DNA of 64,000 nucleotides from Escherichia phage BEU50, in the sequence record OM632671.1, one strand, 5' to 3'. A model generated the notes under the pieces. That model was not told where the DNA came from. It made no database searches and saw only the letters and a list, made by a program, of their open reading frames with translations. Both the position numbers and the translations under genes were made by a program. Below, in pieces: positions 575 through 58,041 of this stretch (position 1 is the stretch's first letter; every line of letters starts with the position of its first letter).

Positions 575-753
575 TGCCGTTATACGACTATAAATGTCAA
601 TCTGAAGATTGTGGTCATGAATATGAAAAAATTAAAAGAATTTCTGAACGAGAAAACGATGTTTGCCCTGAATGTCATCGTCTGTCTACTCGTCGGGTTT
701 CTGCTCCTAAACATGTGAACGGTGGTTTTTACGACTTACTTAAGAAGGGTTAA
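574..753 (+). CDS. small zinc-ribbon protein, FmdB-like (59 aa)
   Basis: Not in ORF track (<60 aa); [18 protein letters not shown]...VCPECH with two Cys pairs; ATG overlaps preceding stop (TAATG). Confidence 0.5.
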   Translation: MPLYDYKCQSEDCGHEYEKIKRISERENDVCPECHRLSTRRVSAPKHVNGGFYDLLKKG

Positions 754-755
754 TT

Positions 756-1181: not shown

Positions 1182-1199
1182 GGGCTTAGGCCCTTTTTG
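1181..1199 (+). terminator. rho-independent terminator candidate
   Basis: AGGGC-TTAG-GCCCT hairpin followed by TTTTT immediately after stop at 1181. Confidence 0.5.
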
Positions 1200-1222
1200 C
1201 TTTAGATTTTGGATGATAGAAT
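1196..1222 (+). promoter_or_regulatory. MotA-type middle promoter candidate for gene 39
   Basis: TTTGCTTTA MotA-box-like element, 12-nt spacer, TAGAAT -10, about 22 nt before ATG 1245. Confidence 0.4.
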
Positions 1223-1244
1223 ACCTTCATAACGAGGAGACAAC

Positions 1245-3862: not shown

Positions 3863-3890
3863 GCTCCTTCGGGAGCTTCATTTTAATTTT
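3862..3890 (+). terminator. rho-independent terminator candidate
   Basis: AGCTCC-TTCG-GGAGCT hairpin followed by T-rich tract. Confidence 0.55.
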
Positions 3891-3904
3891 AATAAGGCTT
3901 AATT

Positions 3905-5005
3905 ATGAAAGTTATGTTTATCCCATCTCGTGCAGTCCCATTTAATCCTGACCGTGTACAAGGTGGTCTTGAAGCGGTTCATTTGAACGTGTTGAAATAT
4001 TTAGTTTCTATCGGTGCCGATATTGATTATATCGGCTTTGATAATGACACGTTTGGTGACTGGAAAGTTACACACCATCCTGTTGGTCATCTGACTAAAT
4101 TCAGTCTAGGTATGAGTTATACTATGGCTCGTAAGATTGTTGAACTAGCCGGCATCCATGAATACGATTTTGTTGTTACTATGGAACCGACTAAACTAAC
4201 CGTTCAGGCAATTAAAGACGCAGGTCTCTCTAAAGTTCATAAGAATTTTATGGCAACACCATTTGAACCAGTATCTCGTGGCATTGTTCAAATTTGGGAC
4301 CAGACTATTCAAATTCATAAGAATGGCGGTAAGAGTTATGCTCCTACTAAAGCCTTCCGTGAATTTGAACGCAAATATTGTTATATGACTTCAGGTCTGA
4401 CTGACAAAATCGATTATGATTATTGGCGAGCAAATCCGTTGTTTGAAGCCGAAGATTATCCGGTTATTTGTTTGACTGAAAAGCCAGAAGTTCTCCCGGC
4501 AACTGATTTGATTATTAGTGCTCAACGTTATGACACTAAGATGCGTCGCACTGATGTTGCTCTTGAAGCAATTAAAGCACTAGGCGAAAATGGTGTAGGA
4601 TACTGTCCTAGTAAATGGGCACCACCAGCTAAATATCCTGTTATTATTGATGCTCCACACAGTGAAATCATGGAACGTCTTAAAACAGCTAAAGCACTTA
4701 TTAATACGTGTCCTGACACAGGTACGGTAGAGAATAGTTCTATTGAAGCCATCTCTAAAGGTGTCCCTGTAATCCAGTTAGTTTTTAAGGATTATCCTCA
4801 TGCGACATTTGAATACGACCCAGATACTGTGCGTGTAGAAATTGATTCCTCTACTCCTAAGAAAGAAGTAGTTGCGCTTTACACAAAAGCTGTATTAGAA
4901 TTCACTGACACATACGAAGCTCGAGTTAAACGTGCTGAAGCAGTATGGAAGAAGTATAATCGAGATGCAGTTGTTGCGATGTGGGATAAAATCTTCACAG
5001 CGTAA
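3905..5005 (+). CDS. hypothetical protein, possible GT-B-fold glycosyltransferase (366 aa)
   Basis: ORF is solid; function weak: N-terminal MKVMFIPSR...GGLE and C-terminal ENSSIEAISKGVPVI resemble GT4-type motifs. Confidence 0.6.
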   Translation: MKVMFIPSRAVPFNPDRVQGGLEAVHLNVLKYLVSIGADIDYIGFDNDTFGDWKVTHHPVGHLTKFSLGMSYTMARKIVELAGIHEYDFVVTMEPTKLTVQAIKDAGLSKVHKNFMATPFEPVSRGIVQIWDQTIQIHKNGGKSYAPTKAFREFERKYCYMTSGLTDKIDYDYWRANPLFEAEDYPVICLTEKPEVLPATDLIISAQRYDTKMRRTDVALEAIKALGENGVGYCPSKWAPPAKYPVIIDAPHSEIMERLKTAKALINTCPDTGTVENSSIEAISKGVPVIQLVFKDYPHATFEYDPDTVRVEIDSSTPKKEVVALYTKAVLEFTDTYEARVKRAEAVWKKYNRDAVVAMWDKIFTA

Positions 5006-5097
5006 ATCCTGAATAGCCTGAGGCACTATTACACATAAGATGATAGATTATATGGTCTTTAGTAATAGTGCCCTAGGAATCTACTGAAGAGAATATT

Positions 5098-5298
5098 ATG
5101 AGAACATATAACGTGGACTTGGAACTTTTTGATAAAGCAGTGCTCCGGGAATTCCGGCTTATCCAAAGATTTTTTGATATCGAATCAGCAGAGTCCTTTA
5201 AAGAACGCTTTAAAGAAATTCGATATAAAATACAAACCGATACAGCTACTAAAGAAGAACTTCTTGAAGTAGCAGAAATTTTTAAACGTAACTTGTGA
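5098..5298 (+). CDS. hypothetical protein (66 aa)
   Basis: ORF track; immediately upstream of rIIA. Confidence 0.45.
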   Translation: MRTYNVDLELFDKAVLREFRLIQRFFDIESAESFKERFKEIRYKIQTDTATKEELLEVAEIFKRNL

Positions 5299-5310
5299 TG
5301 AGAGAAAAAC

Positions 5311-7368
5311 ATGATTATCGAAACGGCTAAAGAAACGATTATTGGTTCTGGTGGTAAGAGCACAGCATTCACTATTCAAGGCAATAGCAAAGTTTATAAG
5401 ATTTTGTCTAATGACCTTTATACAAACAAAGAATTGGCTTGTGTACGTGAATTAATCACAAACTGTATCGATGGACAAATTCTTAATGGTTGCACTGATA
5501 AGTTTATTGTTCAGGCTCCAGGTCGTTTAGACCCACGTTTTGTAGTTCGAGACTTTGGTCCTGGTATGAGTGATTTCACCATTCGAGGTAATGACGAAGA
5601 GCCAGGAATCTATAACTCATATTTTGCTTCAACTAAAACATCGAGTAATGATTTCATTGGTGGATTCGGACTCGGCTCTAAAGCTCCATTAGCATATACT
5701 GATACGTTTAACATTACTTCTTATCATAATGGTGAAGTTCGTGGTTATGTAATTTATCAAGATGACAGTGGTCCACAAATTAAGCCAACCTTTGTAGATA
5801 AGATGGGCCCTGATGACCGTACGGGTGTAGAAGTAGTTGTGCCTGTTAACCCGGAAGATTTTGAAAAGTTCGCATCTGAAATTGCGTATGTTATGCGTCC
5901 TCTCGGCGATATTGCAGAAGTTCGTGGTGTTAAAGATATCAAATACTTCCCGGAATTCGATGATGTTTATTTAGCCAAGGAAGCTCCATGGGGTGAACGT
6001 GGTAATATCATGGCTGTTTATGGTGGTATTGTATATCCAATCGGAAGTGTTATTAAAGAACAAACATGGATGATGACGCGATGCACTACAGCTTATATCA
6101 AATTCCCTATGGGTGAACTAGATGTAGCCCCGTCTCGTGAAGCATTGTCATTTGATAAACGTACAGTAGCAAATATTCATAAACGTGTTGCAGAAATTGA
6201 TGCAAAATTATTTGCTGAAGATTCTAAGAAATGGATTGATTGTGAATATCCACGTCATGTATTCCGTGAAATCGATTCTCTTGGTTACTCTGCTCGTAAA
6301 TACATGGAAAAAGCCGGTTCTAATATTGAATCACTGAAATATTCTAAAGAACAACTAACTTATTCTGAGTTGTACAAACGTTTTAAAATGGGACCTGAAT
6401 GGTGCAACCTTGGCGTTGTATATGATATCGTTTCAGATCCACGACTTCGTCGTATTCGTGAAAGCGGAAGCTCGTCTGCAACTATTTCAATTAATAGCCT
6501 GCTAGGTATTAGTCGTAAGCATATTGATATTGTTATTGACGATGTGAAAGGCCGCGTACCAATGATGCGTGCTCTGAACGATGCTTTGACTTCCACCGAT
6601 GCATCAACACTCGTTGATAAGGTTCCTTCCGGACGGGGTAGTAGCGTATTATTCATTAACCCGGAAGATGAAGTTGCAATGAAACTTCTGGAACGATTAA
6701 AGGTTATTTTCGCTGGTGATAGCCTTAAATTTTATAAGACCTCTGAAATTCTTGCATTAGTTAAACCATGGATTGAAGTTAAAGAACGTTCATCGCAGCC
6801 TCGTCCTAAATCCCCAAGTGCTCATCGGTTCTTTAAGAATGAAAACGATGTTTGGGTATCAGAAGATCTCTTTATTCCGGCCGGTAAAGCTGATGAGATT
6901 CAAGGTTATGTTGTAATTCGTAATCGTTCTAACGCTGAATGTCTTGACGCAGATAAAGGTTGGTTGAACTATGATTCTAATTTCTTGACTCGTATTGCTG
7001 ATTTGTCAGGTATTAAAGAGTTCACTGTAGTCCGTCCACAGATTGCTAAGAAAGTTCGTAAACTTGGTGAAGTAGAATGCTTGTTCGAAAAATCAATTAA
7101 TGACTATATTACGCTAATTGATAAAGTGGATTATGATGAGTATGTATCACCAAGTCGTAGAGCACAGCCTTATTTGAATCATATTACTCGTAACGAAGAG
7201 CTTAACTTCCTTAGTAAGTATTTTAGCTCTAAGAACAAAGAAATCAGTAAAGACTTTGCAAAACTCTCAACAGTAAATAATCGCTGGGGATGGAATCGAT
7301 TCGCAGGTGCTGATAACAGAGACCTGAACAGGAAGTTAGAATTGTGCTTAAAGAGGACTCTTTTGTAG
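5311..7368 (+). CDS. rIIA: rIIA membrane-associated protein with GHKL ATPase domain
   Basis: ELITNCIDG and RDFGPGM GHKL boxes; N-terminus typical of T-even rIIA; 685 aa (T4 rIIA recalled as about 725 aa). Confidence 0.85.
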
Positions 7369-13549: not shown

Positions 13550-13780
13550 GTGAGTGAGTCGAAGAGAATCAATATGAAACGATTAGTATTAGAAGTTAGT
13601 CCGCTTTTTGGTGAATTGGCTATAGAAAAAGTAAATAACATGTATCGTTTGACGCAAGAAGACGATATGCTATATTTTACGCCTAGTGAAATCATTCATT
13701 TAACCCAAATTGAATATCCTTATACTGATAAAATAGTAAGTATCAATGATGAGCACAAAATTCATTGCTCGTTTGATTGA
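13550..13780 (+). CDS. hypothetical protein (76 aa, GTG start)
   Basis: ORF track; AAGGAG upstream. Confidence 0.45.
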   Translation: MSESKRINMKRLVLEVSPLFGELAIEKVNNMYRLTQEDDMLYFTPSEIIHLTQIEYPYTDKIVSINDEHKIHCSFD

Positions 13781-15925: not shown

Positions 15926-16399
15926 ATGTTATTGACTGGCAAATTATACAAAGAAGAAAAACAAAAATTTTATAATGTACAAAACGGTAAATGCTTAATT
16001 TGCCAACGAGAACTAAATCCTGATGTTCAAGCTAATCACCTTGACCATGACCATGAATTAAATGGACCAAAAGCAGGAAAGGTACGTGGATTGCTTTGTA
16101 ATCTCTGCAATGCTGCAGAAGGTCAAATGAAGCACAAATTTAATCGTTCTGGCTTAAAGGGTCAAGGTGTTGATTATCTTGAATGGTTAGAAAATTTACT
16201 TACTTATTTAAAATCCGATTACACCCAAAATAATATTCACCCTAACTTTGTTGGAGATAAATCAAAGGAATTTTCTCGTTTAGGAAAAGAGGAAATGATG
16301 GCCGAGATGCTTCAAAGTGGATTTGAATATAATGAATCTGACACCAAAACACAATTAATAGCTTCATTTAAGAAGCAGCTTAGAAAGAGTTTAAAATGA
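15926..16399 (+). CDS. 49: endonuclease VII (Holliday junction resolvase)
   Basis: 157 aa; zinc-binding CLIC...C..C; matches T4 gp49 family. Confidence 0.88.
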   Translation: MLLTGKLYKEEKQKFYNVQNGKCLICQRELNPDVQANHLDHDHELNGPKAGKVRGLLCNLCNAAEGQMKHKFNRSGLKGQGVDYLEWLENLLTYLKSDYTQNNIHPNFVGDKSKEFSRLGKEEMMAEMLQSGFEYNESDTKTQLIASFKKQLRKSLK

Positions 16400-17217
16400 A
16401 TGTAGTATATAAACTATCATTTATTAATAGAATTAATGCTAAAACCCCACCATATTATTACATTGGAAGTAAAACCAATTGCACTTTTGATGGAACGAAT
16501 ATTATTGATAAAAATGGTAAATTTTATTATTCGTCTTCGTCATCTTCTGAATTTCAAAAAGCCTTATTGAAAGAAACGCCGAAAGTTGAAATATTATATT
16601 TTCAATTAGTCGGAGATGAACAAATAACTAGCATTGAAGCTGAATTTCAAAAGAATATAGAAAAAGATGTATGGAATAAAGAGTATTTTAATTTAGCATA
16701 TGCTGATGGCAAATTTACGACATATGGTATTTCTCCTTCTAAAGAAACTAGAGAAAAGCAATCAATAACCATGATTAAAAGAAATCGTAATAAAGGCAAA
16801 AATCATGGATTTTATGGAAAGCATCATACTAATTTAGCTAGAAAGAAAATATCAGAAGCTTCTAAAAAATACTGGAAAGAAAATCCACATCGTGGATTTT
16901 CGCATACAAAGGAAGCTAAAATTAAAATTGGAATTTCATCTTCTATCAGGCATAAAGGAAGTGGAAATCCGATGTATGGTGTAAAACCTTGGAAAACTCC
17001 GAGCGCAATTAAATCTGGTACTTGTATATTATGGTTAAAATACGCAGAAATTTTATATGATTATTTAAGTCCAGATTTTAAAAGTAAATCATCTATTTTT
17101 GCGGATTTAAACTTACCGAAATTTAGAATTGATAATTTCATCAAAAGGTTTAAAATGGGTTGGAACCCATATTTAGACGAAGAATTTCAAAAGGATAAAT
17201 TAGAATTATGTCTTTAG
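16396..17217 (+). CDS. GIY-YIG homing endonuclease (seg-like, free-standing)
   Basis: N-terminal VYKL...PYYYIGS GIY-YIG module; downstream basic helix repeats; start and stop overlap neighbouring genes. Confidence 0.75.
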   Translation: MNVVYKLSFINRINAKTPPYYYIGSKTNCTFDGTNIIDKNGKFYYSSSSSSEFQKALLKETPKVEILYFQLVGDEQITSIEAEFQKNIEKDVWNKEYFNLAYADGKFTTYGISPSKETREKQSITMIKRNRNKGKNHGFYGKHHTNLARKKISEASKKYWKENPHRGFSHTKEAKIKIGISSSIRHKGSGNPMYGVKPWKTPSAIKSGTCILWLKYAEILYDYLSPDFKSKSSIFADLNLPKFRIDNFIKRFKMGWNPYLDEEFQKDKLELCL

Positions 17218-18205
17218 AAAAAGATGTTTTAAATTTTATTTCAAATAAAGATAAAGAATTAAATACAGAAAACGCCAACAAAGATTCTCGCGTCTTTCCA
17301 ACAAAAAGAGATTTAATGGCCGGTATTGTTTCTAAACATATCGCTTGTCGTATTCTTCCAAGTCATATTGTAAATGCCCATAATGTTGGATTAATTCATT
17401 TTCATGATTTAGATTACAGTATATCATTGCCTTTTACTAATTGCTGTTTAGTAGATTTAAAAGGAATGCTTGAGAACGGGTTTAAGCTCGGTAATGCACA
17501 GATTGAAACTCCTAAATCAATCGGTGTTGCTACTGCAATTATGGCACAAATTACTGCACAGGTTGCTTCTCACCAATATGGCGGAACTACATTTGCTAAT
17601 GTCGATAAAGTACTTTCTCCTTATGTTAAACGCACCTATGCAAAACATATCGAAGACGCAGAAAAATGGCAAATCGCCGATGCGTTAAATTATGCTCAAT
17701 CTAAAACAGAAAAAGACGTATACGATGCATTCCAAGCTTATGAATATGAAGTAAATACTCTCTTTAGTTCAAACGGACAGACTCCTTTTGTAACAATTAC
17801 ATTTGGTACAGGAACTGACTGGACTGAACGAATGATTCAGAAAGCAATTCTGAAAAATCGTATTAAAGGTCTTGGTCGTGATGGGATAACTCCTATTTTC
17901 CCTAAGCTTGTTATGTTTGTTGAAGAAGGTGTTAATCTTTATAAAGACGATCCGAACTATGATATTAAGCAGCTTGCTCTAGAGTGTGCAAGCAAAAGAA
18001 TGTATCCTGATATTATTTCAGCTAAGAACAATAAAGCTATCACTGGTTCATCTGTTCCTGTTTCTCCAATGGGTTGCCGTAGTTTCTTGGGCGTATGGAA
18101 AGATTCGACTGGTAATGAAATTCTTGATGGACGTAATAATCTTGGCGTTGTAACACTGAATCTTCCTCGCATCGCGTTAGATTCTTATATTGGAACACAG
18201 TTCAA
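17208..18205 (+). pseudogene. nrdD: anaerobic ribonucleotide reductase NrdD, 5' portion only (truncated near codon 333)
   Basis: N-terminal two-thirds of class III RNR; frame then runs into reverse complement of gp37 start; no glycyl radical C-terminus. Confidence 0.8.
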
Positions 18206-18340
18206 TCCTGAGTCATCTTTTGTGAAAATTGTTTTATCTTTTAAGTTTATAGCCAATTCACCTTCGGCTAATACTGAAGCAGCAGGACGTTGACCTGCAG
18301 TTTTGCTTCTTTTAAATTGTATTTGTTTTAAAGTAGCCAT
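18206..18340 (-). pseudogene. 37: distal long tail fibre gp37, N-terminal 44-codon fragment
   Basis: Minus-strand [45 protein letters not shown] matches T4 gp37 N-terminus, then diverges and stops within 6 codons. Confidence 0.7.
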
Positions 18341-18348
18341 AAGTCCTC

Positions 18349-18999
18349 TTAATAATAGCCGAAATCTTGAACAGAATCCTTAATTACGATTTGGTCAAAT
18401 CGTGGAACGTGTGAAGGTTGAGATGCAGGATTCTGTGAAAAAAGGTTTGGCGCAGTTAAATTTCCTGTCATAGTGTCTCCAGAGCGTAATACCCTAGAGT
18501 TTGCATTTGCTGTAACAGTATTTATTGCTCCATCAACATAATCTTTACGAGTAGCATCTGATGCTGCGGAAGGAGTAGATGTAACAGTTACAGATGGAGC
18601 CGTTACAGCTTTGGTAAATGTTGTCAAACCTTCTGGCGTAATAGTAATTTGTCCAGTAGTGATTTCACTACCTGCTGGTCTAAAACTAATACCGCCAGAA
18701 GAGCCACCAACTACAAGAGTATTACCAGTGCCGCCACCAGAACGAATTCGGATGGGGGTTTCATTATTACTTAATTGAAGATAACTATTTACACCATAAT
18801 TAATAGTAACTGGGCCTGTGTAAGTACCACCAGTAGATTTAGAAACGAAATCATTATCAGCTGCCTGTGGTTTATTATATTCTGAATATATTTTAAATGA
18901 TTTGTAGAGTACATCGTCACCGGCTGAATTCAACGGAAAATTTCCTTGATGCCAAATGACAGATCCACCTACAGTTGAACCTCCTTTTAAATCAGCCAT
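18349..18999 (-). CDS. 36: long tail fibre distal connector gp36
   Basis: 216 aa; position between gp35 and gp37 fragment; T-even gp36 family. Confidence 0.85.
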
Positions 19000-19022
19000 A
19001 GTATGCCCATTTATTTTAATAT

Positions 19023-19030
19023 TATTTATA
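19023..19030 (-). promoter_or_regulatory. late promoter TATAAATA (gene 36)
   Basis: TATTTATA on plus strand, 24 nt upstream of gp36 ATG on minus strand. Confidence 0.5.
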
Positions 19031-19055
19031 AAGAAAAAAGGAGCCCGGCGGCTCC
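19031..19055 (-). terminator. rho-independent terminator candidate after gene 35
   Basis: GGAGCC-CGGC-GGCTCC hairpin followed on minus strand by TTTTTTCTT. Confidence 0.55.
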
Positions 19056-19061
19056 CTCAGT

Positions 19062-20177
19062 TTAAACTTCTCTAAATTCCTGTCCAAACACTTTACCAGT
19101 TTTAGACGATGCCTGTGTAGGAAGTACCATTATATCTGGAGGTGAAGCCGATTCACAGACATAATTAACGCGAATACCATTGACGCCAAATTCGGCAGGT
19201 TTTGAAATGCCGCCATTTCTTGATACTTCAGAAAAGCTTAAATTTCTCATACCGCCTTGACCCGCTTGGGCGGTTCTCTGTGTGTATATCGTAAATCCTA
19301 CTGCATTTTCAGGAACAACTACATAATCTTCTTTTAATTCCCAAGACCCAGCTTGCCCAGTAAACTCAGCTTGGGTCGAGGAAATATATCCATTTGATGC
19401 ATCATAAAAACGAATAGATATATTTGCAGTTCCAAGATCAAGTAAATCAGCATCAGCATATAGTTGTGCTTTAAGATAAAGAACATCACCAGGAATTAAA
19501 TTGTAGTCAGAAAGTTTACTTATAGCAGCTGAAGTTGGTAAACGCGCAATTTCATTATTAGTTCCACCAACCGCAGACATAAATTGCTCAACGCTTTCGT
19601 ATGTTCTTTTAGGAAATCCTGTAGCTCCGACGTCTTCTAAACTATCAAATACAACATCTAAAATAGTTTGATAATCATCTGTGCTTTTTCTATTACTTAG
19701 TTTAACATGCTCTAATGCAATAGCTCTTTTAGAAGAAGTATAAAAAGCAGCATATGACACGTCAAATCTTGACAATACTGAATCTGATGGAAAAACTGAA
19801 GTTCCTGCTCCCCTTAACCAAGATACCACTTCAGGAGGAAAATTAACCTTTCCGCTAGTTAATATAGCAACAAGTCTATTGTTTGACAAAGAATTCATGA
19901 AACTGACAAAAGTGGTAGATGTTGTATTGTTTGAAGCAGAAAAAGCATATGACTTACTATCAACTAATGCTCCCGTAGAAGGGTCAAAAACTCTTAAATG
20001 AAGACCTGCACTAAATGTTTGATTTCCAACGGGATTATCCTGAAATTTAACATATGGTCCCGCAGTAGAAAGCGGGCAAGAACCCGCTATGCTTATTTTA
20101 TATCTTACTGAATTGCTTTCCGATAAAAATGGCGTTTGGACATATCCTTGTCCAAACTCTGCCATAAATTTTTCCAT
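19062..20177 (-). CDS. 35: long tail fibre hinge connector gp35
   Basis: 371 aa; synteny between gp34 and gp36. Confidence 0.85.
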   Translation of the reverse strand: MEKFMAEFGQGYVQTPFLSESNSVRYKISIAGSCPLSTAGPYVKFQDNPVGNQTFSAGLHLRVFDPSTGALVDSKSYAFSASNNTTSTTFVSFMNSLSNNRLVAILTSGKVNFPPEVVSWLRGAGTSVFPSDSVLSRFDVSYAAFYTSSKRAIALEHVKLSNRKSTDDYQTILDVVFDSLEDVGATGFPKRTYESVEQFMSAVGGTNNEIARLPTSAAISKLSDYNLIPGDVLYLKAQLYADADLLDLGTANISIRFYDASNGYISSTQAEFTGQAGSWELKEDYVVVPENAVGFTIYTQRTAQAGQGGMRNLSFSEVSRNGGISKPAEFGVNGIRVNYVCESASPPDIMVLPTQASSKTGKVFGQEFREV

Positions 20178-20185
20178 AATACCTC

Positions 20186-23100
20186 TTATTCAACCCATTC
20201 AAATTTAACAGTTTTATTCACTGGGTCAGGAATAATGCGAACATTACCAATTCGTAAGAAATCACGAATAGTAAGATTACCTATTATTCCATTATCAGAT
20301 GGGATTGCTCCTATATCCGAAGGTTGAGGAGGATTACCTCCATCGAATACCTGAACAAAACTTGACCAAGAGTTTTTGGTTTTCTGCCATGTACGTGTCC
20401 AGCGAGTGGTACGTGCTTCTGGGGTCGTTGGATAAGTAATCCAATCTTGGTAAAGTGAATCAAGTGTGTTACCAAACTGAGTCAATGTACCAGGAGATTT
20501 AACTTCTTCACCGCGTTCTAAATATGGAAGTCCAGTCACTTCATTAGTTTTTTCAACCATTTTAAAATAACCCGGGAACTGGTTATAAGTGGCTGAATCA
20601 TTAATATCGATTGACCAGAATCCTACAGTATCAGATGTTGGCGCACGGGTATATAAATCAGATGTTTTAACACCTTGAGAACGAATTCTCGAGTTAACAG
20701 TTAAACCGCCTGAACTTATAGTAGCACCTTTTGCAATGATTAAGCTTTCACCAATCGTTACTTGGCCAGATGCATTATTAATAGATAAAGGACGTAATCC
20801 ATTAAATCCGCCAGTTTGATCACCCGATGCAGTAAGCATAAAATTCGTTACTGACCCATCATTGCGAACAATGAAACCATAATTTCCGTTAATAGCACGG
20901 AAAGCATTTGCGCTTCGAGAAATAATTTCACCAGTTGCAGTGACTGAATTACCAAATGTTGCTACACCATTTGCATTCAATGTTCCTGAAGCATTAACAT
21001 TTATCGGTGTTACTGTACCGTTGATATTAAATGTTATATTTCCAGCTTTATTACGCTGAGAATAAAAATGACTAGACGTTTCATCACTAACTTCAAATAC
21101 GGTAGAACGTGTTGTGTCTGATTCCCCACTAAATTGATTTCCCCACACTCTGACTGTCATCGTTTGAGCCGGGTTTGTTCCAGTTTGAGGTCCTTTCTCA
21201 AAAATCAATCGAGTTGCCGTTCCAGTATTAGAAATAGTTAATGTACTATTTGCTGAAACTGATCCACCGAATGTAGCAGTACTAGATGATACAAGAGGGG
21301 CACTCAGATTCGTTTGTTGGGTTAAGGTTAGTGAACCATTAACTGTTTGTGCAATGTCCCTACGAATGAACTGGAGCGAATCTAGACCATCTAATAAATT
21401 ACTATCTACAGCTTTTGCTTTTAATGGCAAATAATTTGCTAATACGCGATTTAATTCATATGGTGATACTGCATAACCATTTTTCTCATATGATTCTAAT
21501 GGTTGTGTTGAACCTACCGTATCATTACCAACGAATGTAATTGAACCAGATGAAGTTTTAACAAACCCTCTTATCAGAGTAGTTGCTGCCCAAGTTGGTT
21601 CACTCTGCACAATCCATTTTAAATTTTTTGGAGATACAGCAGTATTTGCTGATGTTCCAGTCACAGTTTCAGACTGAGTTGCAACTTTAATAACACCTTC
21701 CTGTGCTTCAGTAGATTTAGTACCTAAAAGCTTTTTAGGAGTTATTAAAACATTATCTAATGTTCCTGCAGCAGCTTCAACTTGTGTAGCTACACGAAGT
21801 GTACCACGCTGTGTCTCATTTGCTTCAAGAATATTAAGTGTATAATGGTCCCAGAGAGTTCCTGATTCAACTAATCCAGATAGAGCAACAACAGAAGTAC
21901 GATCAGTACTATTAAATCTAGTTTTAATTTTTAATGGTGTAGAGATGCGAGTATCGTCGACGCCTGCGTCGAATTCAACTTGCGTAGCAATTTCAGCTAT
22001 ACCACTTAAACTTTCAGTTGCTCTACGGTCATTTAAAGTTTTAGGAGTGACTGCACGAGTATAGTCAGTTCCTGTGTTAACTTCACTTTGCGTAGCAATT
22101 TCAATTAAACCAATTCTTCCATCAGTTGATGTCTTTTTATGTAACGTTTCTGGCGTTACAACCGCATTTGCCCATCCTTCTTGGCTTTGTCCAGCAATTA
22201 CTTCACTTTCAACTGCTAAAATTACTGCGCCTTGTTGCGTTGGAGTAGCTTTATACTGATCCAAAGCTTTAGGTGAAACAACTAAATTATTAGTGTTTTT
22301 ATTATAAACATTCGTACCATTTAATTCACGGCTAGAAGCTGGAGTAGCTCCTGCAGTAGATACATAAGTTACAATACCAGATAATGATTCAGAACCTTGG
22401 CGAGCTTGAAGCTTTTTAGGAGTGATGATTGTAGTATCATCAGTACCTGTATTAGTTTCCTGCTGCGTAGCAATTTCAGCGACACCTCTACGAGTTTCTG
22501 TAGCAGTTCTTTCATTCAGCTTTTTAGGAGTGATGATAAGGTCATCTGCAAAAGAGAATGTGGTGTTCTGATTCACTTGAGCAGTAGTTGCTATTCTTGC
22601 AATACCTCTGCGAGTTTCTGTAGCAGTACGATTAGCTAACGTTTCTGGAGTAATTGCTAATTCTTTTTGTGGAGAATTTTCTAAATCAGCATTTGCTTGA
22701 GCTTGCGTAGCTAAAGCAATTACGCCTAATCTTGCTCTAGTAGAAGCATTTAAAGAGTCTACTCTTTCTACAGTTGGAACGTTTTGCTGTACAACCCAGC
22801 ATTTTCCATCAGAATCTTCTATATAAGCAAGTTGTAAAACTGGAACATAATTAGTTTCACCGTTAAAAACTAATTCTTGAACTGTTACCCATTCAGCTTC
22901 AGGCGGATATTCTGAACGTTTTGGGAATTGCAGCAATTGAACTGAGGAAGCAATTTTATCTTCACCTGCAGCTTTGATTTTAACTGTTTGTCCTTTTCTC
23001 ATGTAATTCATGGAAATTTTAACAGTATCACCAACAGAAATATCAGTCGGAAGCTGAAGTTCAATTGTTTGGGTTGTTCCATTATTCGCGCCAAATACCA

Positions 23101-24055
23101 TGACTTCTTCATTTGGACGAATATTAGAATTAGTTGTTATAATGCGTAAACGTGCTTTACTATCCCCGTCAAACAATCTCCACAATTTCTCATTATCATC
23201 AAACATCAAGAAACCGTCAATCGATGTACGGCCTTCAATGGAATGAGTTCCAACTTCTTGCACTGACGTTGTTTCATCATATGTCGTAACAATTGTATGA
23301 TAAAGTGGATTTAATTTATCTAAATCAACGAAATTAATGATATCTCCATGATTGGCAAATCTTGGAAGCTTAACATTAATCGGCGCGGCAGAAGTAAATC
23401 TACGTACGATAAAATCATTAGATTGTGCTTGATATGCAGTCGATGGAGTAACAATCGCAGCTTCTCTGCTATAATCAGCAATATACATTTGCCACAAACG
23501 ATTATTAAAAATGAATACCATCTGTGACTTTGGATGAGTCATTAAAACTGAACGTACCTGTTCACCTCTAAAATTGACAATACTCTGATTTGAAGAATTT
23601 ATTTTAACCTGATTTATGCCAGGTTTTCCACCGATATCTTGAATTATTACGGTTTCTCCATCAAGCGGAGAAGGTGGTAAAGTAAACTCAATGTCATTGC
23701 CAACTGATGTATCTACTGAAATTGCTTCTCCGGATTTTAATTGATATGGTCCAGATGATACGGTTGTATATACAGCATCAGTACGTAATGCTTTCCAACG
23801 AATTCTATTAAAATTTCCAGCAGGTTTTGGAATATTATCCGTTGCTGCCCAAAAACGATTATTATAAATGATTACAAAATCTTTTAAATATCCACGAGTT
23901 GGATCATATTGCTGAACTGTGTTTTCTTGAATTAAGTAATCAACGTTAACACCGTCAGTTCCTACGGTACGATCAGCTAAAGCTACGTTGATTATTTTAT
24001 CGCCACCTGCGTCCAGACCATCTTCTGCTCTGAACTTTCTTTTAATCTCGGCCAT
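20186..24055 (-). CDS. 34: long tail fibre proximal subunit gp34
   Basis: 1289 aa; N-terminus MAEIKRKFRAEDGLDAGGDKIINVALADRTVGTDGVNVDYLIQ and C-terminus KTVKFEWVE match T4 gp34. Confidence 0.92.
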   Translation of the reverse strand: MAEIKRKFRAEDGLDAGGDKIINVALADRTVGTDGVNVDYLIQENTVQQYDPTRGYLKDFVIIYNNRFWAATDNIPKPAGNFNRIRWKALRTDAVYTTVSSGPYQLKSGEAISVDTSVGNDIEFTLPPSPLDGETVIIQDIGGKPGINQVKINSSNQSIVNFRGEQVRSVLMTHPKSQMVFIFNNRLWQMYIADYSREAAIVTPSTAYQAQSNDFIVRRFTSAAPINVKLPRFANHGDIINFVDLDKLNPLYHTIVTTYDETTSVQEVGTHSIEGRTSIDGFLMFDDNEKLWRLFDGDSKARLRIITTNSNIRPNEEVMVFGANNGTTQTIELQLPTDISVGDTVKISMNYMRKGQTVKIKAAGEDKIASSVQLLQFPKRSEYPPEAEWVTVQELVFNGETNYVPVLQLAYIEDSDGKCWVVQQNVPTVERVDSLNASTRARLGVIALATQAQANADLENSPQKELAITPETLANRTATETRRGIARIATTAQVNQNTTFSFADDLIITPKKLNERTATETRRGVAEIATQQETNTGTDDTTIITPKKLQARQGSESLSGIVTYVSTAGATPASSRELNGTNVYNKNTNNLVVSPKALDQYKATPTQQGAVILAVESEVIAGQSQEGWANAVVTPETLHKKTSTDGRIGLIEIATQSEVNTGTDYTRAVTPKTLNDRRATESLSGIAEIATQVEFDAGVDDTRISTPLKIKTRFNSTDRTSVVALSGLVESGTLWDHYTLNILEANETQRGTLRVATQVEAAAGTLDNVLITPKKLLGTKSTEAQEGVIKVATQSETVTGTSANTAVSPKNLKWIVQSEPTWAATTLIRGFVKTSSGSITFVGNDTVGSTQPLESYEKNGYAVSPYELNRVLANYLPLKAKAVDSNLLDGLDSLQFIRRDIAQTVNGSLTLTQQTNLSAPLVSSSTATFGGSVSANSTLTISNTGTATRLIFEKGPQTGTNPAQTMTVRVWGNQFSGESDTTRSTVFEVSDETSSHFYSQRNKAGNITFNINGTVTPINVNASGTLNANGVATFGNSVTATGEIISRSANAFRAINGNYGFIVRNDGSVTNFMLTASGDQTGGFNGLRPLSINNASGQVTIGESLIIAKGATISSGGLTVNSRIRSQGVKTSDLYTRAPTSDTVGFWSIDINDSATYNQFPGYFKMVEKTNEVTGLPYLERGEEVKSPGTLTQFGNTLDSLYQDWITYPTTPEARTTRWTRTWQKTKNSWSSFVQVFDGGNPPQPSDIGAIPSDNGIIGNLTIRDFLRIGNVRIIPDPVNKTVKFEWVE

Positions 24056-24089
24056 TCTCCCGGGCTCCTATTGTGTTTTCAATAATAAG

Positions 24090-24097
24090 TATTTATA
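24090..24097 (-). promoter_or_regulatory. late promoter TATAAATA (gene 34)
   Basis: TATTTATA on plus strand, about 35 nt upstream of gp34 ATG. Confidence 0.55.
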
Positions 24098-24100
24098 CTT

Positions 24101-24130
24101 GTTTACTTTAAGATTTAGATAGTATATAAT
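24101..24130 (+). promoter_or_regulatory. T4-type early promoter candidate (rnh)
   Basis: GTTTAC 24101-24106, TATAAT 24125-24130. Confidence 0.5.
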
Positions 24131-24159
24131 AGAAATCTCACTAATTGAACGAGGTTCAT

Positions 24160-25077
24160 ATGGATTTAGAAATGATGTTGGATGAAGATTACAAAGAAGG
24201 AATTTGCTTAATTGACTTTAGTCAGATTGCGCTTTCAACTGCTCTGGTAAACTTCCCAGATAAAGAAAAAATTAATTTATCAATGGTTCGTCATTTGATA
24301 TTGAACTCAATTAAGTTTAATGTCAAAAAAGCAAAAACGCTTGGATACACTAAAATTGTGCTGTGTATTGATAACGCGAAATCTGGATACTGGCGTCGTG
24401 ATTTTGCTTATTATTATAAGAAAAACCGTGGAAAAGCACGAGAAGAATCTACTTGGGACTGGGAAGGTTATTTTGAATCCAGCCATAAAGTTATAGATGA
24501 ATTGAAAGCTTATATGCCATACATTGTTATGGATATTGATAAGTATGAAGCAGATGACCACATTGCTGTTCTTGTTAAAAAGTTCTCTTTAGAAGGACAT
24601 AAGATTTTAATCATTTCATCGGATGGTGACTTTACACAGCTTCACAAATATCCAAATGTTAAGCAATGGTCACCGATGCATAAGAAATGGGTTAAAATTA
24701 AAAGCGGTTCTGCTGAAATTGACTGTATGACTAAAATCCTTAAAGGCGACAAAAAGGATAACGTTGCTTCAGTTAAAGTACGATCTGACTTTTGGTTTAC
24801 CAAAGTTGAAGGTGAACGGACTCCTTCAATGAAAACTTCAATCGTTGAAGCTATTGCTAATGATCGTGAGCAAGCTAAGGTGCTTCTCACAGAATCTGAA
24901 TATAATCGTTATAAAGAAAATTTAGTTCTAATTGATTTTGATTATATTCCTGATAATATTGCTTCAAACATTGTGAATTACTATAATTCATATAAATTAC
25001 CACCGCGTGGCAAAATTTATTCATATTTTGTAAAAGCGGGTCTTTCTAAATTAACTAATAGCATTAATGAATTTTGA
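24160..25077 (+). CDS. rnh: RNase H (5'-3' exonuclease, FEN family)
   Basis: 305 aa from ATG 24160 (ORF-track 24145 is TTG); MDLEMMLDEDYKEGICLIDFSQIAL matches T4 RNase H. Confidence 0.9.
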   Translation: MDLEMMLDEDYKEGICLIDFSQIALSTALVNFPDKEKINLSMVRHLILNSIKFNVKKAKTLGYTKIVLCIDNAKSGYWRRDFAYYYKKNRGKAREESTWDWEGYFESSHKVIDELKAYMPYIVMDIDKYEADDHIAVLVKKFSLEGHKILIISSDGDFTQLHKYPNVKQWSPMHKKWVKIKSGSAEIDCMTKILKGDKKDNVASVKVRSDFWFTKVEGERTPSMKTSIVEAIANDREQAKVLLTESEYNRYKENLVLIDFDYIPDNIASNIVNYYNSYKLPPRGKIYSYFVKAGLSKLTNSINEF

Positions 25078-25085
25078 GGTGAATA

Positions 25086-25355
25086 ATGGCTAAAAAAGAA
25101 ATGGTTGAATTTGATGAAGCTATCCATGGCGAAGACTTGGCTAAATTTATTAAAGAAGCATCTGATCATAAACTGAAAATTTCCGGTTATAATGAACTGA
25201 TTAAAGATATTCGAATTCGTGCTAAAGATGAACTTGGCGTTGATGGTAAGATGTTTAATCGTCTATTAGCTTTGTATCATAAAGATAACCGTGATGTGTT
25301 TGAAGCTGAAACTGAAGAGGTAGTTGAACTTTATGACACAGTTTTCTCTAAATGA
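25086..25355 (+). CDS. dsbA: double-stranded DNA binding protein DsbA
   Basis: 89 aa; size and position between rnh and gene 33. Confidence 0.7.
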   Translation: MAKKEMVEFDEAIHGEDLAKFIKEASDHKLKISGYNELIKDIRIRAKDELGVDGKMFNRLLALYHKDNRDVFEAETEEVVELYDTVFSK

Positions 25356-25671
25356 CATTCGTCCGGTCGATGAGACCGGTCTTTCAGAAAAAGAACTTTC
25401 AATTAAGAAAGAAAAGGATGAAATAGCAAAGCTTCTTGATCGTCAAGAAAATGGATTTATTATTGAAAAAATGGTAGAAGAGTTTGGAATGAGTTATCTT
25501 GAAGCTACAACAGCATTCTTAGAAGAAAATTCTATTCCTGAAACTCAATTTGCTAAATTTATTCCTTCGGGTATAATTGAAAAAATTCAGTCAGAAGCTA
25601 TTGACGAAAATCTTTTACGTCCTTCTGTTGTTCGTTGTGAAAAAACTAATACATTAGATTTTCTACTATGA
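25333..25671 (+). CDS. 33: late transcription co-activator gp33
   Basis: 112 aa from ATG 25333 (MTQFSLNDIRP...); C-terminus ...TLDFLL. Confidence 0.75.
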   Translation: MTQFSLNDIRPVDETGLSEKELSIKKEKDEIAKLLDRQENGFIIEKMVEEFGMSYLEATTAFLEENSIPETQFAKFIPSGIIEKIQSEAIDENLLRPSVVRCEKTNTLDFLL

Positions 25672-25727
25672 TTAAACTCCGCATGCCTGCTGGTGGTGAA
25701 AGATACATTGATGGTAAATCAGTTTAG
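25668..25727 (+). pseudogene. 59: helicase loader gp59, first 19 codons only
   Basis: [19 protein letters not shown] matches gp59 N-terminus, then TAG; ATG overlaps gp33 stop. Confidence 0.6.
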
Positions 25728-25810
25728 TGAGTATTTTGATAATAAAATTTCTACAGTTAAAACTTCTTCTGATTGTTACTATGATATTACTGTTTTGACG
25801 GAAAAACAAT

Positions 25811-26137
25811 ATGTTGAATTATCACCGCGCGGGCCGTCTATGCCGGGTAGTGAATAAATATAAATCCGACTTTGATGTTAATATTCACCGTGGTACATTT
25901 TGGGGAAATTACGTCGGTAAAGATGCTGGCAGCCGGGAGGCTGCCATTGAATTATTCAAAAAAGATTTTATACGTCGAATTAAATCCGGAGAAATAACTA
26001 AAGCACATTTAGAGCCTTTACGTGGAATGAGGCTAGGATGCACATGTAAACCAAAGCCGTGTCATGGTGATATAATAGCTCATATAGTTAACCGACTGTT
26101 TAAAGACGATTTTCAAGTTGAGGACTTATGCAATTAA
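25811..26137 (+). CDS. conserved hypothetical protein (DUF4326-like Cys/His motif)
   Basis: [12 protein letters not shown] motif; overlaps nrdA start. Confidence 0.55.
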
Positions 26138-28392
26138 TTAATGTTATCAAAAGTAGTGGTGTTTCTCAGAGCTTTGACCCGCAAAAAATTATTAAAGTTT
26201 TATCTTGGGCAGCTGAAGGAACATCAGTAGATCCTTATGAATTATATGAAAATATTAAATCTTATCTCCGTGATGGAATGACAACTGATGATATTCAGAC
26301 TATTGTCATTAAGGCCGCTGCGAATTCTATTTCGGTTGAAGAGCCTGATTATCAATATGTAGCTGCACGCTGTTTAATGTTCGCTCTTCGTAAGCATGTT
26401 TATGGGCAGTATGAACCACGTTCATTTATTGACCATATTTCTTACTGCGTAAATGAAGGTAAATATGACCCTGAATTATTGTCAAAATATTCAGCAGAAG
26501 AAATTACATTTTTAGAATCAAAAATTAAGCACGAGCGGGATATGGAATTTACTTATTCCGGGGCGATGCAATTAAAAGAAAAATATCTAGTCAAAGATAA
26601 AACCACCGGTCAAATTTATGAAACTCCGCAGTTTGCATTTATGACTATTGGAATGGCATTGCATCAAGATGAACCTGTTGATAGACTAAAACACGTTATC
26701 CGTTTTTATGAAGCAGTATCCACTCGACAGATTTCATTGCCAACTCCTATTATGGCTGGTTGCCGTACTCCGACTCGACAGTTTAGTTCATGTGTTGTTA
26801 TTGAGGCAGGAGATTCATTGAAGTCTATCAATAAGGCTTCTGCTTCAATTGTTGAATATATCTCTAAACGCGCTGGAATTGGTATTAACGTTGGTATGAT
26901 TCGTGCCGAAGGTTCTAAGATTGGCATGGGTGAAGTACGCCATACTGGTGTTATTCCTTTTTGGAAACATTTTCAGACTGCAGTTAAATCATGTTCACAG
27001 GGTGGAATTCGTGGCGGCGCTGCTACTGCTTATTATCCTATTTGGCATTTGGAAGTTGAAAATCTTCTCGTTTTGAAAAATAACAAAGGCGTAGAAGAAA
27101 ACCGCATTCGTCATATGGATTATGGTGTTCAACTGAATGATTTGATGATGGAACGTTTTGGAAAGAACGATTACATTACTTTGTTCAGTCCCCATGAAAT
27201 GGGTGGAGAGCTTTATTATTCTTATTTTAAAGACCAAGACCGTTTCCGTGAATTATACGAAGCAGCAGAAAAAGACCCTAATATTCGTAAAAAGCGTATT
27301 AAAGCCCGTGAACTATTTGAATTGCTCATGACTGAACGTTCAGGAACAGCAAGGATTTATGTACAGTTCATTGATAATACGAATAACTATACTCCGTTTA
27401 TTCGTGAAAAGGCACCTATTCGTCAGAGTAACTTGTGCTGTGAAATTGCTATTCCAACAAATGATGTGAATAGTCCTGATGCTGAAATTGGATTGTGTAC
27501 TCTCTCTGCATTCGTACTAGATAATTTTGACTGGCAAGACCAAGATAAAATTAATGAATTGGCAGAAGTTCAAGTTCGTGCTCTTGATAATCTTTTGGAT
27601 TACCAAGGATATCCAGTTCCTGAAGCAGAAAAAGCTAAAAAGCGTCGTAACCTTGGCGTAGGTGTTACCAACTATGCAGCTTGGCTGGCAAGTAACTTTG
27701 CTTCTTATGAAGATGCTAACGATTTAACACATGAACTATTTGAGAGATTACAGTATGGACTCATTAAAGCATCCATTAAGCTCGCCAAAGAAAAAGGACC
27801 TTGCGAATATTATTCAGACACTCGTTGGTCTCGAGGCGAATTACCTATCGACTGGTACAATAAAAAGATTGACCAAATCGCAGCTCCAAAATACGTTTGT
27901 GACTGGTCGTCGCTGCGGGAAGACCTCAAGCTCTTTGGCATCCGTAATAGCACATTATCAGCACTTATGCCATGTGAGTCATCTTCCCAAGTTTCTAACA
28001 GTACAAACGGTATCGAGCCTCCACGTGGACCGGTAAGTGTTAAAGAATCAAAAGAGGGTTCCTTTAATCAAGTCGTGCCCAATATTGAGCATAACATAGA
28101 CCTCTATGATTATACGTGGAAATTAGCTAAGAAAGGTAATAAACCTTATCTTACGCAGGTAGCTATTATGCTGAAATGGGTATGTCAATCAGCTTCAGCG
28201 AATACATACTATGACCCGCAAATTTTTCCAAAAGGAAAGGTTCCAATGTCAATAATGATTGATGACATGCTATATGGATGGTATTATGGCATTAAAAATT
28301 TCTATTATCATAATACCCGTGATGGTTCTGGTACTGATGATTATGAAATAGAAACTCCAAAAGCTGAAGATTGTTCATCCTGTAAATTATGA
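26128..28392 (+). CDS. nrdA: aerobic ribonucleotide reductase large subunit
   Basis: 754 aa; ATP-cone N-terminus; active-site Cys motifs; C-terminal Cys pair CSSCKL. Confidence 0.92.
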   Translation: MQLINVIKSSGVSQSFDPQKIIKVLSWAAEGTSVDPYELYENIKSYLRDGMTTDDIQTIVIKAAANSISVEEPDYQYVAARCLMFALRKHVYGQYEPRSFIDHISYCVNEGKYDPELLSKYSAEEITFLESKIKHERDMEFTYSGAMQLKEKYLVKDKTTGQIYETPQFAFMTIGMALHQDEPVDRLKHVIRFYEAVSTRQISLPTPIMAGCRTPTRQFSSCVVIEAGDSLKSINKASASIVEYISKRAGIGINVGMIRAEGSKIGMGEVRHTGVIPFWKHFQTAVKSCSQGGIRGGAATAYYPIWHLEVENLLVLKNNKGVEENRIRHMDYGVQLNDLMMERFGKNDYITLFSPHEMGGELYYSYFKDQDRFRELYEAAEKDPNIRKKRIKARELFELLMTERSGTARIYVQFIDNTNNYTPFIREKAPIRQSNLCCEIAIPTNDVNSPDAEIGLCTLSAFVLDNFDWQDQDKINELAEVQVRALDNLLDYQGYPVPEAEKAKKRRNLGVGVTNYAAWLASNFASYEDANDLTHELFERLQYGLIKASIKLAKEKGPCEYYSDTRWSRGELPIDWYNKKIDQIAAPKYVCDWSSLREDLKLFGIRNSTLSALMPCESSSQVSNSTNGIEPPRGPVSVKESKEGSFNQVVPNIEHNIDLYDYTWKLAKKGNKPYLTQVAIMLKWVCQSASANTYYDPQIFPKGKVPMSIMIDDMLYGWYYGIKNFYYHNTRDGSGTDDYEIETPKAEDCSSCKL

Positions 28393-28443
28393 TATAATTT
28401 GACTCATGGACGAGTCACTATCTATTAACTAAGTGGAAAATTT

Positions 28444-29118
28444 ATGAGCACAGTTTTTAATACAAACCCAGTTGATGTTTTAAAAGAACCTATGTTTTTT
28501 GGTTCAGGTCTTGGTATTGCGCGTTATGATATTCAACGCCATAAAGTTTTTGAAGATTTGACCGAAAAGCAATTGTCATTTTTCTGGCGTCCTGAAGAAG
28601 TAAACTTAATGATGGATGCTGCACAGTTTAATAAGCTTCCTCAGTATCAGCAAAATATTTTTACTAATAACCTGAAGTATCAATCACTTTTGGATAGCAT
28701 TCAGGGTCGTGCGCCATCTGCTGTACTTATGTCATTAATTTCAGACCCGAGTCTTGATACATGGGTTGCTACATGGACTTTTAGTGAAACTATTCACAGC
28801 CGTTCATATACACATATCATGCGAAATCTTTATACTGATCCATCGAAGGTATTTGATGAGATTGTATTAGATGAAGCTATTATGAAACGTGCTGAATCTA
28901 TCGGTCGCTATTATGATGATGTTCTGATTAAAACCCGTGAATGGGAAAATGCTAAAGAATTTGTAGAACTAGCTAAAGAATCTCCTGATGCTGTCTTTCG
29001 TTTAAACCGAGCTATTAAACAAGAAGCCGAAGCTAAACGTGCTTTAATGAAATCTCTTTACCTCTGTTTGCACGTTATTAATGCCTTAGAAGCATTCGTT
29101 TTTATGTATCTTTTGCGT
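28444..29118 (+). CDS. nrdB: ribonucleotide reductase small subunit, exon 1 (apparent -1 frameshift near 29094)
   Basis: R2 di-iron family; frame gives ...NALEA then off-frame, while the conserved IRFYVSFA continues in the -1 frame up to the 5' splice site. Confidence 0.8.
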
Positions 29119-29228
29119 AAAATGCGCCTTTAAACGGTAACGTTTATCGAAAACTCCTTTAATTGCTGGAAAGTCCTTTATAGGAAAACTAGCAGCCAAG
29201 GTTTTGCTTGCACCTTTAATTAGTATAA

Positions 29229-29236
29229 TATAAATA
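29229..29236 (+). promoter_or_regulatory. late promoter-like TATAAATA upstream of intron ORF
   Basis: TATAAATA about 28 nt before the intron ORF start. Confidence 0.4.
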
Positions 29237-29263
29237 TGGTTATACTTTTAAGAGGATGCACAA

Positions 29264-30073
29264 TTGAACTATAGAAAAATTTGGATAGATGCTAACGGAC
29301 CTATACCTAAAGATTCTGATGGAAGAACATACGAAATCCATCATAAAGACGGTAACCGTGAAAATAATGATTTAGATAATTTGATGTGCCTTTCTATACA
29401 GGAACATTATGATATACATTTAGCTCAAAAAGATTACCAGGCTTGTCATGCTATAAAGCTTAGAATGAAATATTCTCCTGAAGAAATTTCTGAATTAGCT
29501 TCTAAAGCCGCAAAATCTAGAGAAATCCAGATTTTTAATATCCCTGAAGTACGAGCTAAAAATATTGCCTCTATTAAATCTAAGATAGAAAATGGTACAT
29601 TTCATCTTTTAGATGGTGAAATACAGCGTAAATCTAATTTAAATAGAGTTGCATTAGGTATACATAATTTTCAACAAGCTGAGCATATTGCAAAAGTTAA
29701 AGAACGCAATATTGCAGCTATAAAAGAAGGTACTCATGTATTTTGCGGTGGTAAAATGCAGTCAGAAACTCAATCAAAACGGGTAAATGACGGTTCACAT
29801 CATTTCTTATCAGAAGACCATAAGAAAAGAACATCAGCAAAAACATTAGAAATGGTTAAGAACGGGACCCATCCTGCACAAAAAGAAATCACATGTGATT
29901 TTTGTGGTCACATTGGTAAAGGTCCTGGATTTTATCTAAAACATAATGACAGATGTAAATTAAATCCAAATAGAATTCAATTGAATTGTCCATATTGTGA
30001 TAAGAAAGATTTATCACCATCAACATATAAACGATGGCACGGCGACAATTGCAAAACAAGGTTCAACGACTAG
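29264..30073 (+). CDS. I-TevIII: HNH homing endonuclease, intron-encoded (I-TevIII-like, full length 269 aa)
   Basis: HNH motif HHKDGNRENNDLDNL plus C-terminal Cys4 zinc finger; TTG start codon in ORF track. Confidence 0.8.
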   Translation: MNYRKIWIDANGPIPKDSDGRTYEIHHKDGNRENNDLDNLMCLSIQEHYDIHLAQKDYQACHAIKLRMKYSPEEISELASKAAKSREIQIFNIPEVRAKNIASIKSKIENGTFHLLDGEIQRKSNLNRVALGIHNFQQAEHIAKVKERNIAAIKEGTHVFCGGKMQSETQSKRVNDGSHHFLSEDHKKRTSAKTLEMVKNGTHPAQKEITCDFCGHIGKGPGFYLKHNDRCKLNPNRIQLNCPYCDKKDLSPSTYKRWHGDNCKTRFND

Positions 30074-30208
30074 TCTTCGGACGTAGGGTCAAGCGACTCG
30101 AAATGGGGAGAATCCCTCCGGGATTGTGATATAGTCTGGACTGCATGGTAACATGCAGCAGTTCATAAGAGAACGGGTTGAGAATTAGCGAGCTCAATCG
30201 AACATACG

Positions 30209-30711
30209 GTACCTTTAACTTCCATAAAAATATGGAAATTATGGAAGGTAATGCAAAGATTATGAAGTTCATTGCTCGTGACGAACAACTCCACCTCAAG
30301 GGTACTCAGTACATTATCCGTCAACTTCAATCTGGTACTGATGGTGATGAGTGGGTTCAAATTGCTAAAGAATGTGAACAAGAAGCAGTTGACATTTTTA
30401 TGGAAGTAAATAGTCAAGAGAAGGAATGGGCTGCACACCTCTTTAAAGACGGTACATGTCCAGGTATCAATACGCAGAGTATGTGTGCTTTTGTTGATTA
30501 CTTGACTGTGTCTCGTATGAAACAGTGTGGTTTGCCATGCCCAATCACTGATGCTCCGACCAAGCATCCGTATCCTTGGATTCGTGAATATCTGAACTCT
30601 GATTTAGTTCAAGCCGCTCCTCAGGAAGTTGAAATCAGTTCTTATCTTGTCGCACAAATTGATAATGATGTAGACCAAAATGTAATCAATTCATACAAAA
30701 AATATTTCTAA
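30209..30711 (+). CDS. nrdB: ribonucleotide reductase small subunit, exon 2
   Basis: Begins GT-ACC-TTT (..CTFNFHKNMEIMEGNAKI); ORF-track 30178..30711 includes intron-derived leader. Confidence 0.8.
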
Positions 30712-58004: not shown

Positions 58005-58041
58005 GTAATAAATATAGTTATATTTATAATGAGGAAATATC

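Follow-up and report, generated by a model that had tools for sequence, protein, structure and literature searches.

The 64-kb stretch of Escherichia phage BEU50 analyzed here (64,000 nucleotides in all, referred to as the window) contains a blunt join, termed J4, at which gene 59 passes directly into the 3' part of nrdA.2. The join probably arose as a splice during construction of the sequence rather than as an evolved or functional feature of a phage genome. J4 is blunt, is unique among the data sets searched, removes an essential gene and belongs to a set of four such joins that includes a translocation and whose breakpoints share a 20-nt phase, and together these properties point to the assembly of the sequence and not to the evolution of a phage. 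A technical rather than a biological cause is the most likely reading of J4. An earlier sequence-only reading of the same DNA had recognized a deletion-type break relative to the universal T-even order 33-59-32-frd-td-nrdA.2-nrdA.1-nrdA, and this structural description is correct. The biologically meaningful deletion from a phage genome that it implied is not upheld, on the grounds just given.

Table 1. Features flanking J4 and the positions of the four joins in the 64-kb window
Feature	Position	Strand	Description
junction J1	7346..7347	.	rIIA of Mosigvirus type, lacking its last 178 nt, fused to mid-gene sequence of a Tequatrovirus Gly-radical gene (~T4 63818)
junction J2	13766..13767	.	mobD-nrdC region missing: 6.6 kb vs fPS-2, 8.6 kb vs T4
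junction J3	18206..18207	.	nrdD cut mid-gene, joined to gene 37 codon ~45 on the opposite strand
rnh (RNase H)	24160..25077	+	intact ORF in the left flank; 99% identity to rnh of T4 and other Tequatrovirus
dsbA	25086..25355	+	intact ORF; matches the annotated dsbA of T4
gene 33 (late-transcription co-activator gp33, 112 aa)	25333..25671	+	intact; ATG at 25333, stop at 25671
gene 59 remnant	25668..25727	+	19 codons, then TAG formed by the join
junction J4	25726..25727	.	blunt, zero microhomology; from BLAST end points and comparison of the flanks with T4 and VATT16-1 scaffold_2
nrdA.2 (DUF5496) 3' remnant, codons 45-87	25727..25857	+	out of frame with the gene 59 remnant
nrdA.1 (DUF4326, 108 aa)	25811..26137	+	intact; Pfam PF14216, E = 5.5e-22
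nrdA (aerobic ribonucleotide reductase large subunit, 754 aa)	26128..28392	+	intact ORF; 99.7% to VATT16-1 scaffold_2, 98% to T4 and FL18

The arrangement of the genes surrounding J4 is given in Table 1. Gene 33 and the gene 59 remnant overlap in the sequence ATGA, and the remnant peptide is identical to residues 1-19 of T4 gp59 (19/19 amino acids by tblastn), which bears out the gp59 N terminus that the sequence-only reading had placed behind gene 33 with this same overlap. A chance resemblance of the 19-codon ORF to gene 59, considered as a way in which that assignment might fail, is rejected since the ORF forms the end of an unbroken ~99% nucleotide match of 1,627 nt or more to hundreds of T-even/Tequatrovirus records. 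In every T-even reference compared, position 25726 is the last base of the left homology and 25727 the first base of the right homology; the deletion-type junction that had been placed near 25725 does exist, and its exact position is 25726|25727. Gene 59 is cut after 19 codons and followed by TAG as had been described, with the correction that this stop codon is made by the join itself. The bases TA of the TAG at 25725-25727 derive from gene 59 codon 20 (TAT) and the G from nrdA.2 codon 45 (CGT), whereas T4 at the gene 59 breakpoint reads on as TAT AAA. Both breakpoints are intragenic, lying in gene 59 on the left and in nrdA.2 on the right, where NrdA.2 residues 46-87 align to 25729-25854 (tblastn). 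The spacing of ~85 nt that had been noted ahead of the DUF4326-like gene and nrdA is confirmed, but the segment is not intergenic and constitutes the 3' part of nrdA.2, ending at 25857. A scan for promoters and terminators around J4 returned weak consensus matches only and no terminator, and an Rfam scan of the window gave zero matches at the gathering threshold.

The gap at J4 measures 6,055 bp compared with T4 (KJ477684) and 6,017 bp compared with the closest relative, the metagenome scaffold VATT16-1 scaffold_2. The missing block comprises codons 20-217 of gene 59, gene 32, frd.1-3, frd, td with its group I intron and I-TevI, and codons 1-44 of nrdA.2; in T4 itself segG also falls in this stretch. 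Tblastn of the whole 64 kb with the rest of gp59, gp32 (query taken from FL18), Frd, both Td exons and I-TevI found none of these. The search confirms that the remainder of gp59, gp32, frd and td are missing, as had been read from the gene order, and adds frd.1-3, the td intron with I-TevI and, for T4, segG to a list that was incomplete. It also covered the proposal that gene 32 be looked for elsewhere, which in the 64-kb window yielded nothing, and rules out that gene 32, frd or td has been moved to another place within the window. In a self-sufficient T4-like segment gene 32 lies directly downstream of gene 59, and in the window it does not. gp32 has an essential role in replication, repair and recombination (PMC535899) and is absent from the window, so the sequence as written is not that of a self-sufficient phage. 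In gene content, order, orientation and the 33/59 ATGA overlap the window is the same as the canonical T-even cluster rnh-dsbA-33-59-(segG)-32-frd.3-frd.1-frd-td(intron/I-TevI)-nrdA.2-nrdA.1-nrdA-nrdB (T4 KJ477684, ~150.7 to 138 kb), with 98-99.8% identity on both sides of J4. The difference is the central 6.0 kb, which is absent in the window and present in all 18 contexts listed and in all matching phage records.

The surroundings of the flanking genes are uniform in public data. The public collection has the exact gp33 protein in 2,887 blocks, followed by full gene 59 and gene 32 in 10 of the 10 contexts listed, and the exact NrdA.1 protein is found in 22 public contigs, with td and a full-length 87-aa NrdA.2 upstream in 8 of the 8 contexts listed. 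The intact order 33-59-32-frd-td-nrdA.2-nrdA.1-nrdA is therefore seen in 18/18 contexts listed (10 for gp33 and 8 for NrdA.1). The two flanks of J4 occur together in none of the matching records (0/693 and 0/780) among 50,697 phage records, and the junction 28-mer has zero exact matches in IMG/VR, JGI metagenomes and GTDB genomes. J4 has no match in E. coli complete genomes or plasmids, the ORF reading across it is not recorded among 153 billion gene positions, and the exact gp34 protein has no entry in the gene-position index. The junction was not recovered independently in the other genomes and metagenomes searched. Homologous phages with gene 33 adjacent to nrdA, which the sequence-only reading had named as a finding that would speak against it, were sought and are represented by 0 of the 693-780 matching records and 0/18 genomic contexts; a natural 33-nrdA adjacency in some T-even phage is rejected on this absence of spanning records or contexts. 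A literature search for a matching feature returned general T4 reviews only.

The breakpoints of J4 have 0 nt in common, both in T4 and in the 99.5% relative VATT16-1 scaffold_2, and the closest shared 8-mer is displaced by 24 nt. The short direct repeat that marks the breakpoints of a natural microhomology-mediated T4 deletion is lacking, and a microhomology- or repeat-mediated deletion at J4 is rejected because there is no repeat at the ends. Classical T4 deletions are located in non-essential regions, namely rII/denB and the del(63-32)/farP region adjoining gene 32. The frd and td genes are dispensable, and the del(63-32)/farP deletions do not reach gene 32, leave the phage viable and typically have short direct repeats at their ends. 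These deletions are similar to J4 in being multi-kilobase losses in the same part of the map that cover frd and td, but at J4 gene 32 and the greater part of gene 59 are lost and the ends carry no repeat. Because gene 32 is left intact in the classical deletions and their ends are usually short repeats, J4 does not belong among them.

J4 is one of four joins of this kind in the window (Table 1). At J1 the match to phage a20 ends at 7346 and the match to fPS-2/T4 begins at 7348 with zero shared bases, and the partner gene is placed ~62 kb away on the T4 map. J2 is spanned by none of 497 matching phage records. At J3 the nrdD remnant corresponds to positions 1-293 of the 562 in the Pfam NRDD profile, and the join is non-syntenic, leading from T4 44341 to 156691. 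The overlap at J1-J3 is 0-1 nt, and the chimeric ORFs at J1 and J3 have no record in the gene-position index. Read along the window, the T4 coordinates run 6352-1272 / 63818-57611 / 49032-44341 / 156691-149153 / 143097-106413, the same breaks appear against FL18, a20 and fPS-2, and the window is not colinear with the circular T-even map. With the five segments termed A, B1, B2, C and D in the order of the window, the natural circular order is B1, B2, A, C, D, and at least one of the events is thus a translocation, the block at 63.8-44.3 kb of the T4 map being placed between rIIA and gene 37.

Two further observations concern nrdD and rIIA. The nrdD remnant is without the group I intron or I-TevII at 17743-17746, where fPS-2 has a 1,036-bp insert. 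In the deposited FL18 genome (PP400780.1, 149513-150960) an annotated rIIA fragment of 813 nt is directly followed by denB, and most of rIIA and all of rIIB are apparently missing.

No sequence is shared at any of the four joins, and the window contains no repeats of at least 27 nt and no N spacers. De Bruijn-graph assemblers normally make no join without a shared k-mer, and chimeras of that origin are joined inside shared sequence of at least k nt, which is found at none of the four positions. The lack of shared k-mers and N spacers excludes the ordinary graph-chimera mechanism. The breakpoints at 7346, 13766, 18206 and 25726 can all be placed at 6 mod 20, three of the four carrying an ambiguity of ±1 nt, with segment lengths of 6420, 4440 and 7520. 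This common 20-nt phase was noticed after the fact and has a Monte Carlo p≈0.001 with the ±1 nt ambiguity allowed; ordinary indels relative to the references lie off the phase. We know of no biological process that yields such a phase and, to our knowledge, no assembler produces breakpoints upon it. The phase hints at a block-wise, non-biological construction, for which it is suggestive only.

The composition of the window alternates between two genera. Positions 1-7346 are Mosigvirus-like (98.5% to phage a20), 7347 to ~30230 are Tequatrovirus-like (96-99.8%), and ~30450-64000 are again Mosigvirus-like (98% to FL18). The closest relative of both J4 flanks is a single Tequatrovirus metagenome scaffold (ENA ERZ28650664, VATT16-1 scaffold_2) with 99.1-99.8% identity. 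The left flank (18207-25726) is 99.1-99.5% identical to this scaffold and the right flank 99.4-99.8% over 25727-29336, or 99.4-100% over 25727-30230. The scaffold is the best of 10 contexts compared on both sides of J4 and has the intact 6,017 bp, and both flanks are accordingly matched by one parental genome. With both flanks assigned to one Tequatrovirus lineage the term deletion fits J4 better than chimera, and from these alignments J4 is judged to be a deletion-type join within one lineage. The switch from Tequatrovirus to Mosigvirus is located ~4.5 kb to the right of J4 in nrdB exon 2 (30230-30450) and is syntenic. This region, examined for a fifth join on the 20-nt phase, is a gradual mosaic unlike both reference types and looks like the product of ordinary homologous recombination or mosaicism.

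Some of the records closest to the J4 flanks are themselves irregular. The scaffold VATT16-1_SAMN05826552_METAG-scaffold_2 has a length of 215,140 bp, ~46 kb beyond a T4-type genome, and may itself hold redundancy or a mis-join. The best match of the left flank among deposited phages (99.4%) is the T4-type record PV654520.1 (142,418 bp), labelled 'Pseudomonas phage vB_PSGBLB0006', and PV654517.1 is likewise listed. PV654520.1 is ~27 kb shorter than the T4 genome, and the record is probably incomplete or mislabelled.

On the preferred reading, construction of the sequence would have skipped a contiguous 6.0-kb block by a clean cut at 25726|25727, and with the three further clean cuts the result would be a mosaic of segments of Mosigvirus and Tequatrovirus type whose order is partly wrong. 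Candidate origins of such cuts are the concatenation of contigs, a reference-guided consensus that dropped uncovered stretches, or deliberate block-wise editing, none of which accounts fully for the pattern. Mis-joined phage and metagenome contigs resemble the window in having several unsupported non-syntenic joins, arbitrary cuts through genes, sequence from two related genera and junctions that are unique. The window differs from them in joins that lack a shared k-mer or N spacers, in a single orientation and in the 20-nt phase, and the finding that all five segments have one orientation and are nearly in map order argues against a random concatenation of contigs. The presence of a single Tequatrovirus lineage on both flanks is also what a genuine deletion would be expected to show, and counts against the splice reading.

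The alternative that survives best holds that 6 kb have really been deleted at J4 from a defective T-even genome. The deletion would be one among several illegitimate rearrangements in a phage that would persist through co-infecting intact Tequatrovirus or Mosigvirus, with headful packaging tolerating the loss. T4 packages its DNA by headful measurement, and T4 topoisomerase can mediate illegitimate recombination that is free of homology. This explanation accommodates both the single lineage on the two flanks, whose closest relative retains the intact 6,017 bp, and the presence of two T-even genera in the window, for which a mixed infection is plausible. It nevertheless requires that four blunt events, a translocation among them, occurred independently within 19 kb, and leaves their shared 20-nt phase unexplained. 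Many essential functions are gone from the map intervals of the window, including gp32 and genes 37 and 38, J4 is seen in no public data set searched, and the short direct repeats in which classical T4 deletions usually end do not occur at J4. We consider a real deletion of this kind unlikely. In its full form, the proposal would take the window as the faithful sequence of a multiply rearranged, gene-32-less, helper-dependent 'cheater' T-even genome, arising when a mixed Tequatrovirus/Mosigvirus infection produced joins without homology, and kept by complementation and headful packaging. If true, this would be the first T-even genome without a single-strand DNA-binding protein of its own and a candidate helper-dependent defective genome of relevance to phage social evolution; the evidence is against it, and we regard it as highly improbable.

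A strain deleted or rearranged by engineering or in the laboratory, with its gene 32 and further essential genes relocated or supplied in trans, is equally hard to credit. Clean breakpoints without microhomology on a regular phase are compatible with design, whereas the arbitrary cuts inside codons, which leave useless stubs of gene 59 (19 codons), nrdA.2 (43 codons) and half of nrdD, speak against it. The joins are without scars, linkers, markers, restriction sites or recombination sites, gene 32 is not in the 64 kb, and the backbone is not a laboratory strain but a wild unpublished mosaic lineage with no more than 98-99.8% identity to any record.

A chimera of two co-assembled phages, Tequatrovirus on the left of J4 and Mosigvirus on the right, has a slightly smaller chance again of being correct. 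Segments of the two types do alternate in the window, and a genus-level chimera was suggested by FL18 (Mosigvirus), which matches from exactly 25727 with 97.9% identity. The right flank over 25727-30230 is, however, closer to the Tequatrovirus scaffold of the left flank than to FL18, and the change of genus takes place further to the right in nrdB exon 2. With one Tequatrovirus scaffold best on both sides, a genus-level chimera is rejected for J4, but a two-phage chimera is the best description of J1 at 7346. The last possibility is a novel T-even lineage whose genes are naturally ordered in another way, with genes 59 and 32 intact at some other place. These genes could lie outside the window, which is 64 kb of its source, but the possibility is barely credible, as the canonical order holds in the 18/18 contexts listed and all matching phage records and the gene 59 and nrdA.2 remnants retain 99-100% nucleotide identity to relatives, indicating a very recent cut and not an old rearrangement.

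With J4 read as a splice introduced during construction of the sequence, the window is unsuitable for annotation or mining as if it were a natural phage genome. The apparent losses (genes 32, 59, frd, td, 37, rIIB-motA and others) and the fusion ORFs at 7346, 13766, 18206 and 25726 would reflect how the sequence was constructed. Had the molecule existed, it would encode a 19-aa gp59 stub and would be without gp32 or its translational operator, Frd, Td and I-TevI. The nrdA.1 and nrdA genes would be placed 83 nt downstream of the new stop codon and, as there is no terminator-like site between the rnh-33 unit and nrdA.1/nrdA, would be transcribed by read-through from that unit. DNA replication and recombination would be wholly dependent on a co-infecting helper.

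Further differences between the window and its relatives concern the nrdA-nrdB region and homing endonucleases. The nrdB gene (28444-30711) is split by an intron carrying a full-length 269-aa HNH (I-TevIII-type) ORF at 29264-30073, which is truncated in the T4 copy. A segment of ~476 nt (29337-29812) is present in the VATT16-1 scaffold and absent from T4 and FL18. The spacer between nrdA and nrdB is 51 nt long (28393-28443) and has no mobE-type homing endonuclease gene, compared with ~700 nt in T4 and ~1.6 kb in FL18. Free-standing homing-endonuclease-like ORFs are located at 57261-58043 (-), 63205-63864 (+), 3050-3862 (+) and 16396-17217 (+). Two of these four are GIY-YIG/SegE-type and occur where FL18 has no sequence or a different one, and two contain NUMOD3, one beside the topoisomerase gene, the other located between gene 49 and nrdD.
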